64,000 bases of DNA from Escherichia coli (GTDB lineage Bacteria > Pseudomonadota > Gammaproteobacteria > Enterobacterales > Enterobacteriaceae). Made by a program: the position numbers. The stretch is from assembly GCF_045037415.1 (NCBI RefSeq), contig NZ_CP173438.1; one strand, given 5' to 3'. This document shows positions 10,101 through 16,100 of this stretch, piece by piece. Every line of letters starts with the position of its first letter. The first letter of the stretch is position 1.

Positions 10101-13100
10101 GGCGCATGGCCAGTCCAGGGAGGTATCCGACAAGGACTCCTTCTGAGCGGGCAACGGCGACAGGTAACGCACCGATGGTAGCTGGCTGATCAACAACCAG
10201 CAGTATCTGACCATGTTGTTTCAGGTCAGATATTAGCGACCTGAGTTTGTTTTCGTCGTTGGGTAATGCTTTATCGAACAGGCGTTTACCTGAACGATTA
10301 ATGGCTACAGCGTGATGCGTATCTTTACCGACATCAACGCCGATAAAGACCTGGACGGATTCGTAATCGCTGGATTCGGTCATTCTGTCTCCCTTGTATA
10401 TGGGTTAAGCAGATAACCACGGGGAGCAGGTACCGGCATCCACGTTACAGACGGTCCCGGCAAAAGTGCCTGACCTGACCCCTATTAGCGGTTACCAGCG
10501 CCCCACCAGACCCGGTGACATCACCCCCCGGATCATGGACGACTGGGGGCAGTAATCATGCCGGGTCTGGCTGGCTAACACCCCATTATAAGGGGTACGA
10601 ATAAAGTAACGGGGGTGCGAAAAGATGCTTCCGCACGCACGCGCGATAAAGAGGGGATAGTTTTCGTGAGGACAGGGAGAGAAGCAGGCGTTCTGATAAT
10701 TGCAGAGTTGTTTTCGGAGGTGGTTACAGTGAGTCAGCCCGTTCCTGGCGAGCAGGAGACTGATATCACCGATGGGATAAGGTTGTCTGATTGGTATTAT
10801 AAATATAAGAAGTCATCAGAGAGTAACGTAAAGGATTTGCCAGAATAACCTAAGAGAGTAAATCTCTCCGGTAACAGAGCGCTGTGAAGCATTCTGTATC
10901 AGAGTGCAAATACATGAACGCTGATGCGTAAAATCAGCAGTGACACGCCAGCTCCCCCTATGCCCATTCCTGTATAAGACATGAACTGAGCGTATTAATG
11001 CTCCTGCCCTGAGACTGAGCCGGTGAGTGAGGGGCTGAGAAATCCCTCTTGACACTGCTCTAACCAGAAATACTTCCCCGGTTGTTGCGGTGCGTCCGGA
11101 TCCCCGATAACGGAACACTAAGGCTGTATTGCGGGACACCAGGTAAGTGGCAGCCCGTAATACGTCAGGAGACGCGGGAAAAGTGAATTCCCACACGCGT
11201 TATAAACTTACCCTTGCGGAGCTGGAAGCCTTTAACTCTGCCGTTGACAACCGGCTGGCAGAACTGACCGCAAATTTTACGAGTGCGTGCTGGCTTCAGT
11301 CTTGTCACCTGAGCGTTCGGTAACGGAGGCGCGGGCGGTAATAGACTGATTTTCAGGTATTACCGGCTTACGGCGTGTGGTTGATATTGAGGGGCTGTGA
11401 GTTTCGCGTATTTGTCAGAAACCCAGACGAGTTTTCCTGTATGGGACGAAATAAGGCAGCGGCAATACCTGGAAAAATTTAATATGGTATGAAGGAGAAC
11501 CTGTCGGTTACGCTTAATATACCCGGTACACTGTCAGCTCAGGGGATACATGAACCGTTATCTCACCAGCTACACAGTATATACACACTGACGCTGACAG
11601 TAGTCAGCAGGACCACAATAATCAGTGCCAGCAGTATGGTAACGATACGGTCTGTATTCCGGTAATAGCCGAAGGGGTCGACAGAACCACAATACGGGCA
11701 ACACACTGTATTATGAGTAATCGCGTTTCCACAGTCCCTGCACTTCTTTTTGCGTATCACCATCACTCCCTCCTCACAGCCTTACCCGTAACCGGTTTTT
11801 TACATTAAAAAAACAACGCTGAAAATTCAACCGTCAGTCCGGAGACGACCGTTCGGGTTATCACAGAGTGCCTGAGACAGTGCCCTGCCGGAGGTCACTT
11901 CAGGGACTCTGCGCATTTTTTACGACGTGGCTATTCCGTATGAACCATACGGAGATTTAACCATGACCTACAAATACAACCCCTTCTGGCAGCAACGTAT
12001 TCGTGAGACAGTGCGGCACGCACTGAATGTTCATCCCCGCCTGACGGCATTGCGGGTTGACCTGCGTTTCCCGGATGTACCGGCAGCAACGGACGCAGCT
12101 GTGATATCCCGCTTCATCAATGCCCTGAAAGCCCGAATCGACGCTTACCAGAAACGTAAGCATCGGGAAGGTAAACGCGTGCATCCCACCACTCTGCATT
12201 ACGTCTGGGCCCGGGAGTTTGGGGAGTGCAAAGGTAAAAAACACTATCATCTGATGCTGCTGGTCAACCGGGATACCTGGTGTCGTGCCGGTGATTACCG
12301 CGCTCCGGGATCACTGGCCGGAATGATTGAACAGGCCTGGTGCAGTGCCCTGGGGGTGGATGCCGGATGCCATGCCACGCTGGTGCATTTTCCGGCCTGG
12401 CCGGCGGTGTGGCTGGCGCGTAATGATGACACCGGCTTTCAGCAAGTGCTGGAACGTGCTGACTATCTGGCGAAGGAGCATACCAAAGCTCACTGCACCG
12501 GTGAGCGCAACTTTGGCTGCAGTCGTGGCTGAGCCAGACAGACGAGTTATCTGACTTCAGTGTGATGACGTGTTCATGGCCACCACACTGATTTTCCCTT
12601 ATGAGACTGAACTGAAACCGCCATTCACACCTGACCACGCTGCCCGTACCGGGACGGCTGTTGCCTGCGTGTCGTCTGACGGTAAGGAACATATACTATG
12701 TACGCAAAATCCTTTCTCGCTCTTGATAGCAACGGACGTCTGACGGGCGCCCGTACTGTACAGGCCGCACCTTATGCTCACTACACCTGCCACTTGTGTG
12801 GCAGTGCACTCAGATACCATCCGCAATACGACACTGAACTTCCCTGGTTTGAACACACTGACGACAGGCTGACAGAGCACGGTCAACAGTGCCCTTATGT
12901 CAGGCCGGAGCGCAGAGAAATACAGTTGATTAAACGTCTGCAGCAATTCGTACCGGATGCCTTACCCGTGGTGCGTAAAGCCAGCTGGCACTGCAGACAA
13001 TGTCACCACGATTATTATGGGGAGCGGTACTGCACACACTGCCAGACCGGAGGATTCAGTATTCCCCGGACAACTCAGGAGGAAATATGCGAATTCTGAA

Positions 13101-16100
13101 CTGTTATATGGCGAATGACAGCAAAGGCCATTTTGTTACGGCGAAAGAAGCAGCGAAGCACAACCGCCAGGACGTTTTGTGCTGTGTGTCCTGTGGATGC
13201 CCGTTAACACTTCAGCGGGGCAATGACGGACAACCACCGTGGTTTGAACATGACCAGATGACTGTCGCTGAGAAAATCCTGCTGCGATGCACCTGGCTTG
13301 ACCCGGCAGAGAAAGAGGCCCGTCGTTTGCATCTGCAGGGTATGACGGTTCCGGATTATACGGTGAAGGTGAGAAAGTGGTTTTGTGTGATGTGTGACGA
13401 AGATTATGAAGGAGAAAAGTGCTGCCCGAGTTGTGGTACCGGGGTATACAGCAGGGAGGGGGGGCTGCAGGAAGGCAACTGGAAGGATAGGAACTGAGCG
13501 GTTCAGTCGCGGAAATCAGTTGTAGAGCTGTAATGATATCTCCGGGAGTGCTGCGTTGGTAGGGGCATCCCGGGATAGAGAAATTTTAGCACTTTGCCCT
13601 GAATGATTGTAGACGTCCCGGGTACTCGTACCGGTCTGAGTTATTACAGTTAGATATTCACTTTTTCTCCCGCATACTTCACATCTGTCAACGACGGATG
13701 AAAAGTGGTTCTTCCGCAACCTGGGTGGAAGAAAATGGATGAAACTTTCTGGCGAACAAGGATCTAAGCTGTTTTAAGTTATGGGCAACGCAATGCACTC
13801 TCTTAAGACACTTCTACAGTTACCTTGCGGATGGCGATGCAGTCGACAAATTATTAGCTCTGACGGTATAACCCTCCATCTCCACGGAAAACGCAAAACA
13901 GCACAATGTCCTGAATGCTTTAAGCGTAGCGACTCTGTTCATAGTTGTCGTCGGCGCCGGATACAGCATCTACCCTGCTCAGGGCAGACGCTATGGCTTG
14001 TATTTTCCGTCCGCCACTGGTACTGCCGTAACCCGGCTTGTTAACGTAAAATTTTTGCCGAGTCGCTTGCTCCCTTCGCCGGTTCACACCAGCAGTCTTC
14101 ACAGGCGTTACAAAATTTACAACGTCAACTGGGATTAATAGCTGGAGGTGAGGCTGGAAAACGGGCTGCAACGGCAGCGGGTCTCCGTTGCAGTGCTGAT
14201 ACTCTTCTTCGCAGGGTTATCAATACCCCGGAGACGAAACAGTCAGGCGCGCCTCATGTCGGTATTGATGAGTGGGCGTGGCATCGGGGCCACTGCTGCG
14301 GTATGTTAATAGTCAATCTTGATACTCACCGTCCCCTCGTCCTGCTTCCCGGCCGTGATCAGCGTACGCTGGCGACCTGGTTCAGAAAATATCCGGAAAT
14401 ACAGGTTGTCTCGCGTGATCGCAGTGGAGTCTATGCGACAGCAGCACGTGAAGGTGCACCTCAGGCCAGACAGGTGGCCGATCGATGGCACCTGCTAAAA
14501 AGTATTGGTGATGAGCCTGAACGAATGATGTACAGACATATGCCTCTGATACGTCTTGTTGTCAGAGAGTTATCACTGAAGAAATCACCTGAGCCAGAAA
14601 TATCTGTGCCTGTAGCATCGCTCCGTCGTCCGGAACGCCTTAAACAGCAAACCCGCAAAAAACGGCATCAGCATTGGACAGAGGTTATGGCCCTGCATAA
14701 CAAGGGATGTAGTTTCAGGGAAATATCCCGTATTACAGGCCTGTCGCGAGTGACAGTCAGTCGCTGGGTGCGTTCAGGAACATTCCCTGAAATGTCAACC
14801 CGGCCTCCAAAGCGAGGGCTTCTGGACCCATGGAGGGAGTGGTTAAAAGAGCAACGAGAAAGTGGTAATTATAATGCCAGCCGGATATGGCGGGAAATGG
14901 TGGCCCAGGGGGGGACAGGCAGTGAAACCATCGTCAGGGATACTGTTGCCAAATGGCGTAAAGGCTGGAACCCACCGGTTACTACTGCCGCAAGACTTCC
15001 TTCAGTGTCCCGGGTAAGCCGCTGGTTGATGCCCTGGAGAATAATCAGGGGCGAAGAAAATTATGCATCCCGATTTATTAGTCTGATGTGTGAAAAAGAA
15101 CCGGAGTTGAAAATAGCACAGCAACTGGTACTCGAGTTCTACCGTATTCTGAAAACCTAAAATAAATCACAGCTAAGCAGCTGGTTCACTCGAGTTCACG
15201 AAAGCGGCTCAGCAGAACTTCGGTGCGTAGCTGCGGGGATGGAAGCTGATGCTGCGGCTATATGTGAGGCAATCAGCAGTCGCTGGAGTAATGGTGTTGT
15301 CGAAGGTCATGTAAATCGCCTGAAGGTGCTGATACGCCAGATGTATGGTCGAGCCGGATTTGAACTACTTAGGCGGAGGGTAATGAGTCCACTGGCATGA
15401 AAATCTTCACCTAGGTTGCGGAAGAGCCACTTTTGCACTGTTCGTGACAGTATGGCCTTTATGTACTCACTTTGTTACCGGTAGCTGAATCATCACTACC
15501 GTGCTGCAAATGGTGGTGAACAGCATCAATTGTGGAATGAATGTTGCCGAAGCGACCAATGCGCCTCGTTTCCACCATCAGTGGTTGCCGGACTAGCTGC
15601 GTGTTGAAAAGGGTTTAGTCCGGATACGCTCAAGCTGCTGGAAGCAAAAGGTCAGAAAGTGGCGCTGAATGAGGCGATGGGCAGCACGCAAAGCATTATG
15701 GTTGGGTCGGATGGTGAGTTGTACGGCGCATCCGACTCGCGCTTGGTGGATGATTTAACGGCGGGGTATTAATTGACATCCCCCGGCGCAGTGTGCCGGG
15801 GGATAATGGTTTTATGCGGTCAATAATCGTCCGGGATTATCGATACAGAGTTTTTTGAGGATCGTTTTATCGACGCCGCGCTCCGCCAGATAGGCCAGAA
15901 AAACATCTGGAACAAATCCCCAGCCATTACCGCCATTTTTAGCCCACATTTGTTTAAGGAAGACATCGTGGCTGAGAACAAGCTGATCGGCGTATCCCAA
16001 CTCAATGAGATGAGCGACGGCATCGGCAGTCTCCTGCACCCCTGGCGCTATTCCCTCTTTCGGGAAGGTAATGTCTAGGCCAATCATGTCGAATTCCAGC

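Follow-up and report, generated by a model that had tools for sequence, protein, structure and literature searches.

Why should an Escherichia coli genomic island carry two overlapping genes for diverged versions of one small zinc-ribbon protein, and what might such a pair do there? The question is raised by a 64,000 nucleotide stretch of contig NZ_CP173438.1 (RefSeq assembly GCF_045037415.1), referred to here as the window, in which the two genes lie downstream of a YagK/YfjJ-type gene of the 'inovirus Gp2 family' (Gp2-like below). We call them ZnR-A and ZnR-B, or A and B. They are core backbone genes of a module, comprising AlpA and a YagK/YfjJ (HUH Rep-like) gene, that belongs to the P4-integrase-type islands of Enterobacterales. 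We set out below the gene pair itself, its linkage to this module, the history and sequence features of its products, and the roles that these observations make more or less probable.

The ZnR-A/ZnR-B gene pair

The pair, its leader and its junction are as follows (PGAP, Prokaryotic Genome Annotation Pipeline; ORF, open reading frame).

12600 to 12697, + strand: leader 5' of A, about 95 nucleotides, near-identical in two E. coli island copies and including the A ribosome-binding site TAAGGA
12698 to 13099, + strand: ZnR-A (ORF A), 133 residues, the position-1 paralogue; PGAP WP_000271042.1, 'putative zinc ribbon protein'
13077 to 13099, + strand: A-B coupling junction, with AGGAGG at 13077-13082, the B ATG at 13087 and the A TGA at 13097-13099
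13087 to 13497, + strand: ZnR-B (ORF B), 136 residues, the position-2 paralogue, of a type also found alone; PGAP WP_001221618.1, 'zinc-ribbon domain-containing protein'

The preliminary description of this locus had listed two adjoining reading frames of 133 and 136 codons that share the motif order CxxC, PWFEH, WxCxxC..DYxGE..CxxCxTG, had taken them for diverging paralogues, and had placed the start of B inside the 3' end of A with a ribosome-binding site of its own. Each of these statements is borne out. Both proteins contain the motifs in that order, and BLASTP finds A and B to be 32% identical across 127 aligned residues (E=5e-16), and each matches the same pair of Pfam families. B starts at ATG 13087 (a mechanical ORF list gives a longer in-frame version from 13000), the overlap with A is 13 nucleotides, placing the TGA of A within codons 4-5 of B, and AGGAGG precedes the B start codon by a gap of 4 nucleotides. 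The ATGCGnnTnCTGA overlap and the upstream GGAGG are common to Escherichia, the Klebsiella plasmid described below, Hafnia, Siccibacter, Superficieibacter, Salmonella diarizonae and Rosenbergiella, and the conservation of this arrangement across genera supports the translational coupling that had also been claimed. The Serratia oryzae pair overlaps by 10 nucleotides; in the remaining genera A and B are separated by spacers of 27-133 nucleotides, each with a separate Shine-Dalgarno site.

Outside the leader, the spacer between the Gp2-like gene and A differs by large indels between the same two E. coli island copies. Within the leader is a short inverted repeat, CCGTACCGGGACGG, and the stretch is a candidate operator or RNA element. 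It was found to contain neither a consensus sigma-70 promoter nor a terminator, a search around the A/B pair for promoters, terminators and repeats of iteron-like or hairpin type gave nothing above shuffled expectation, and an Rfam scan of 8500-16000 gave no match.

Linkage to AlpA and YagK/YfjJ genes

Homologous loci were collected by scanning 100,044 species-representative genomes with a degenerate DNA pattern (WFEH...WxCxxC...CxxC), which returned 53 stretches, all from Enterobacterales except two 'Collinsella MAG' (metagenome-assembled genome) contigs. The loci were then scanned with hidden Markov models (HMMs) built for AlpA, the zinc protein and the YagK/YfjJ 'Gp2' protein; synteny was counted in the 30 arrays whose upstream flank is 2 kb or longer. 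A Gp2-like gene lies nearby on the same strand in 29 of these 30 arrays and AlpA lies upstream in 25; every array has at least one of the two. The preliminary description had placed the pair in a prophage-like island beside a YfjJ/YagK-like gene, and the co-occurrence counts agree with it, as does the PF11726 match of the neighbouring gene in the window (3e-47). Ten further contexts show the order AlpA, YagK_YfjJ_C, zinc protein (metagenomes, genomes and a Klebsiella IncFIB/HI1B plasmid); these rest on independent precomputed Pfam or PGAP annotation.

The locus itself lies within a CP4-44-type island, between yeeW/cbtA and the asn tRNAs, and positions 11900-13600 are 100% identical to E. coli SK1144. 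The island also has a YeeP-GTPase, antirestriction, RadC and CbtA/CbeA module (in the window and SK1144, and in the NCTC86 copy). What follows 3' of the zinc gene is variable cargo: conflict systems of the SMEK/CTD10/MC6 and DUF2326 types (DUF, domain of unknown function) and type I restriction-modification at some loci, an ars operon or IS66 with fec genes at others, and ISL3 in the window. When two E. coli island copies are compared, identity collapses within the last codons of B, which indicates that A and B close the conserved backbone operon and are not part of the cargo.

Distribution, gene order and ancestry

Among the 53 stretches, 20 arrays have at least two units and 22 plainly have one; for the other 11 the end of the locus is too near for the number of units to be told. 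A neighbour-joining tree of 67 full-length units places position-1 proteins of many genera with A, and position-2 proteins together with most singles with B. Some position-2 proteins fall instead, along with a fusion protein described below, into a third clade that is divergent. Gene order is constant, with the A-type gene first and the B-type gene second or alone. As the clades of the two positions are distinct and each spans many genera, the duplication is older than the radiation of these genera. Many database proteins of the family are recombinant chimeras between the paralogue types.

Within E. coli, 2986 of 5426 complete genomes (about 55%) have the pair at a coverage of at least 80%, in up to seven places per genome. 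Together with its presence in other genera, this answers the question of conservation that had been left with the preliminary description: the pair recurs well beyond the window. Homologues occur in 32 of 72,556 plasmids, and tblastn of B against 50,697 phage records gave no match. A profile search of 1.84 billion representative proteins yielded 260 clusters at E <= 1e-3, so the family is small.

Several loci deserve separate mention. The two Collinsella contigs (L045 and L046) carry enterobacterial Gp2 and zinc-ribbon genes, and the protein of L046 ('MAG: Collinsella sp.') is almost identical to A of the window; both are therefore probably bin contamination. Budvicia aquatica DSM 5075 has at least seven separate arrays on different contigs (L022-L028), implying many related islands in one strain. 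An extra short ORF that matches only the C-terminal ribbon part of the profile occurs at L038 (3353-3634), L051 (9920-10201) and L018 (3723-3890), and the same type recurs at L019 (2754-2924) and L061 (672-812). In several genera this ORF is found either overlapping AlpA or in the interval from AlpA to the A-type gene, and it is possibly a remnant, or else a third paralogue with the ribbon only.

The Rep-like neighbour and its inactivated paralogues

The gene upstream of the pair in the window, and the related genes that bear on its association with the zinc module at other loci, are these.

11963 to 12532, + strand: YagK/YfjJ ('inovirus Gp2 family') Rep-like gene; PF11726 3e-47, PF23343 (REP_ORF2-G2P) 3.5e-5, phrog_25019, PGAP
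Gp2-like copies lacking the motifs, 3' of an A-B pair: L012 8493-9059; L017 2704-3339; L029 1027-1575; L051 8333-8881; L043 633-1337; L053 2128-2787; L057 5148-5744
Gp2-like domain lacking the motifs, fused to the zinc module: L003 3220-4158

The window protein retains the RVDLRF motif, an HUH-type motif (KKHYHLMLLVN) and a tyrosine motif (RADYLAKEH, with YxxK in DYLAKE). The same two catalytic motifs, HUH and tyrosine, are retained in Gp2-like copies 5' of the pair and in those 3' of single zinc genes at five other loci. At seven loci a Gp2-like gene stands directly 3' of the A-B pair, and there both motifs are lost (APECKMVLLLN; VKAMSEP); PGAP names the copy of this kind on the Klebsiella plasmid an 'inovirus-type Gp2 protein'. 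A related degeneration is seen in the fusion protein P0191 (454 residues), in which the zinc module is joined to a domain of about 310 residues. This domain is a paralogue of the product of the YagK/YfjJ gene immediately upstream of P0191 (21% identity, E=7e-24), with HUH changed to FLH and the tyrosine lost; BLASTP of the fusion protein against the Gp2 protein of the window was not significant. The motif-less Gp2-like paralogue looks like a recurrent pseudo-enzyme partner. The fusion and the gene neighbourhood both point to joint action of the zinc module and a protein of the Rep fold.

Zinc domains tied to such enzymes have precedents. The N-terminal zinc fingers of IS91 and Helitron elements and the zinc-binding domains of primases serve in DNA recognition and are attached to HUH/Rep-type enzymes and primases. 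The likeness to the present family consists in a small zinc module tied to an HUH-motif protein, and once fused to it. The A/B module differs in being mostly a separate polypeptide, often duplicated, and in that the Rep-like partner fused or adjacent to it here is without catalytic motifs. No similarity of A or B to the IS91, Helitron or primase zinc domains was found in sequence or fold searches.

Domains, zinc sites and predicted structure

Both proteins match DUF7828 (PF25165; A 9.6e-31 over residues 2-87, B 7.9e-31 over residues 4-89) and Zn_ribbon_11 (PF11682, formerly DUF3279; A 1.2e-9, B 6.6e-18), and DUF7828 is matched by all 36 of the aligned homologues. The proteins as such are thus already catalogued, in two DUF families and as identical proteins in RefSeq. 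Neither matching family is a well-characterised housekeeping family, assignment to which would have spoken against the preliminary description, and an NCBIfam scan gave no match for A or B.

Conservation was assessed on an alignment of 36 full-length, diverse members with 23-46% identity to B. Residues C33, C36, F53, H55, C100, C103, C113 and C116 (B numbering) are invariant, and C68, W98, G109 and G119 nearly so. We infer that each chain binds zinc at two sites, a CCHC site around the WFEH motif (C31, C34, H53 and C65 in A; C33, C36, H55 and C68 in B) and a C-terminal C4 ribbon (C99, C102, C112 and C115 in A; C100, C103, C113 and C116 in B). A confident AlphaFold (AF2) model of B built on the 36-sequence alignment has two domains, with a predicted local distance difference test score (pLDDT) of 89 and a predicted template modelling score (pTM) of 0.59; it supersedes an earlier AF2 run on a shallow alignment rich in E. 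coli chimeras (pLDDT 66).

Structure searches found no neighbour outside the family, either in BFVD, where nothing was significant at E <= 1e-3, or among the best 50 matches in AFDB50, which are all family members from Enterobacterales. A sequence-profile search of the PDB gave a marginal match to RPB9 (E=0.011). Among the AFDB50 matches (e.g. A0A6N8N922, B7MMF4) many UniProt entries are titled 'DNA-directed RNA polymerase, beta subunit/140 kD subunit', and one Budvicia entry of the family is titled 'Competence protein'. These polymerase and competence names are probably propagated mis-annotation arising from zinc-motif matches.

One relationship to a competence protein does emerge from profile comparison: the N-terminal finger is a homologue of the zinc finger at the N-terminus of CoiA, a competence nuclease. 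Alignment of the family with the N-termini of ten Bacillus CoiA proteins by hhalign gives a probability of 92.5% (E=5e-7), alignment with one real CoiA gives 67.6%, and the Pfam model CoiA_N (PF25164) has sub-threshold matches in 9 of the 36 family members; the CoiA sequences used came from the database. In layout the two fingers agree: a beta-hairpin is followed by CxxC, some 15 residues later comes an aromatic-F-x-H motif, and a cysteine lies downstream. Unlike CoiA, A and B have neither the PD-(D/E)XK nuclease domain (PF06054) nor the CoiA C-terminal domain (PF25166), and have the C4 ribbon instead; CoiA is moreover a chromosomal competence gene of Firmicutes, whereas A and B are island genes of Enterobacterales. 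Because the nuclease part is absent and the finger alone is held in common, A and B are not members of the CoiA family. The CoiA finger has been mentioned as a putative C2H2 finger (10.1101/2024.02.06.579203).

In the literature found, the ancient and ordered pair, its near-obligate linkage to Rep and AlpA, the profile-level homology to CoiA_N, and the linkage or fusion to inactivated Rep paralogues are unrecorded.

Selection on A and B

Comparisons among E. coli copies were counted as well-diverged where the proportion of synonymous differences (pS) exceeded 0.1, and over these the ratio of non-synonymous to synonymous differences (pN/pS) of the pair ranges between 0.02 and 0.24. B is the more constrained, with values of 0.02-0.07, and A reaches about 0.2 at larger divergence. 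Near-identical copies of A (window against L068, L077 and L078) differ by 2-6 non-synonymous and 0-1 synonymous changes, the non-synonymous changes focusing on residues 7, 11, 21, 23, 27 and 28 (codons 7-28, within 12698-12790 of the window). At the same loci, where the copies of B have diverged, B shows 9-11 synonymous and 0-1 non-synonymous changes. The numbers are small, and the excess of non-synonymous change in residues 7-28 of A is suggestive. As pS differs sharply between A and B for the same pairs of loci, recombination shuffles the A and B alleles.

Possible roles of the pair

Combining the linkage, the fusion and the inactivated paralogues, we propose that A and B are accessory or regulatory partners that control the island's Rep-like nuclease, and with it replication or mobilisation, a reading we hold tentatively, as plausible though somewhat short of probable. 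A and B would be made in fixed proportion from one transcript and would partner the Rep-like nuclease of the island or its catalytically dead paralogue. They would recognise DNA at the island origin or nick site, or the Rep protein itself, and would thereby control replication or mobilisation of the excised island after AlpA has switched the module on.

This proposal must be tempered by several observations that weigh against it. The zinc-ribbon gene is absent from the K-12 islands CP4-44, CP4-57 and CP4-6, though YfjJ/YagK is present there, so Rep-like genes can do without A and B. Some A-type genes stand alone and about half of the arrays consist of a single gene, so that an obligate A-B heteromer is no more than possible. 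Both proteins are near neutral, not basic (isoelectric points of about 6-8), which disfavours strong non-specific DNA binding; for the nucleic-acid binding suggested in the preliminary description, the one lead by homology is the N-terminal finger shared with the DNA nuclease CoiA. That YagK/YfjJ proteins act as Rep is itself predicted from motifs alone, and the island in the window is riddled with insertion sequences (IS) and probably immobile. Literature searches gave no functional study or mention of DUF7828 or Zn_ribbon_11, of the accessions, or of the UniProt name 'Ybl85' in the sense of this family, and a functional study of YfjJ/YagK was likewise not found.

Zinc-finger proteins of integrative elements suggest a different role. 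Ogr of P2 and Delta of P4 are zinc-finger activators of late genes, Delta consisting of an Ogr-like unit duplicated in tandem. A and B could be transcription factors of this kind, contacting RNA polymerase or DNA and activating island, cargo or helper-phage genes downstream of AlpA. They resemble Ogr and Delta in being small, in having zinc fingers and in belonging to integrative elements that bear AlpA, and as a pair of paralogues they bring the duplicated Delta to mind. At most loci they share an operon with AlpA, their profile resembles that of RPB9 weakly (two ribbons and a linker), and a site directly 5' of the cargo would suit a cargo activator. Neither protein, however, matches Ogr_Delta or any other transcription-factor family of Pfam even at E <= 10; their cysteine spacing is unlike the CxxC-22-CxxxxC of Ogr and Delta, each has two distinct zinc sites, and their genes are linked to Rep and not to capsid or late genes. 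The UniProt names invoking the RNA polymerase beta subunit look like annotation noise, and a transcription-factor role leaves unexplained both the fusion to a Rep-like domain and the dead Rep paralogues right behind the pair. We consider it unlikely. The suggestion of the preliminary description, that the pair is a phage-interaction module (for defence, anti-defence or helper sensing), fares worse against the data and seems to us quite improbable. It would fit the position of the pair at the edge of a cargo hotspot where relatives hold SMEK/CTD10/MC6, DUF2326 and type I restriction-modification systems, as well as the pattern of change in residues 7-28 of A, which, in small numbers, is that of conflict genes; and in Pseudomonas a jumbo phage moves related islands that have AlpA and a Gp2-like gene (10.1101/2024.08.29.610337). 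The pair is nevertheless a fixed part of the AlpA/Rep backbone, syntenic across an order and not patchy as cargo is, with defence cargo starting only 3' of B. PADLOC-DB v2 at E <= 0.01 has no match for A, B, the Gp2-like protein or the small upstream ORF, PHROGs have none for A or B, and neither NCBIfam nor the phage records add any; moreover, A and B contain no enzymatic or effector domain, and purifying selection on B is very strong.

That A and B are functionless relics hitch-hiking on a decayed element would agree with the breakage of the window island by IS110, IS21/IS100 and ISL3, and with the many database entries of the family that are truncated, frameshifted or chimeric. Conservation of the zinc ligands across genera, the low pN/pS values of the well-diverged comparisons, the conserved overlap and Shine-Dalgarno site, and reading frames that are intact in 55% of complete E. 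coli genomes make this very improbable. A toxin-antitoxin pair was also considered and dropped, given that A and B are mutual paralogues without a match to any model of a toxin or an antitoxin.

The proposed partnership with Rep can be drawn out further, to a version that is speculative and that we regard as doubtful in its full form. The zinc pair and a dead Rep paralogue, which is adjacent in many genera and fused in one lineage, would make up a so far undescribed switch governing the rolling-circle-type replication, or the mobilisation, of P4-integrase/AlpA islands. Residues 7-28 of A would form a variable specificity surface, B, as the conserved partner, would dock onto the fold of Rep, and an active HUH Rep might be licensed only on its cognate island or in the presence of a helper.

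In most E. coli and in many other Enterobacterales, islands of the CP4 type have cargo for virulence, iron uptake, defence and toxin-antitoxin functions, and the pair is among the few universally linked partners of their Rep-like gene. If the pair does control Rep, it would offer a handle on island mobility, tell what two DUF families do and help to explain the CoiA zinc finger; if it does not, A and B are an ordinary conserved hypothetical pair.

Other features of the window

The remaining island features around the pair are listed here.

8785 to 8991, - strand: AlpA-family helix-turn-helix gene (PGAP and AlpA HMM), of the same island backbone
9187 to 10383: IS110-family ISEc20, separating the AlpA-like gene, which is here on the opposite strand, from the Rep-like and zinc-ribbon genes
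11180 to 11323: truncated Hha/YmoA gene (PGAP)
11563 to 11763, - strand: 66-residue ORF, WP_001297900.1, with an N-terminal CxxC...CxxC ribbon and a C-terminal hydrophobic helix
13781 to 15400, + strand: ISL3-family transposase pseudogene, abutting B and marking the end of the conserved backbone

The backbone is disrupted over 8089-11323 and again over 13781-15400, and IS21/IS100 copies lie further upstream. The 66-residue ORF is divergent from the Gp2-like gene and is kept at the same place in other E. coli island copies; its PHROG matches are weak and to uncharacterised families. Beyond the island, three tRNA-Asn genes are found among nac, cbl and yeeO (34572-38880), and the right end of the window, from about 48000 to 64000, is occupied by the yersiniabactin high-pathogenicity island (fyuA, ybtE/T/U, irp1, irp2).

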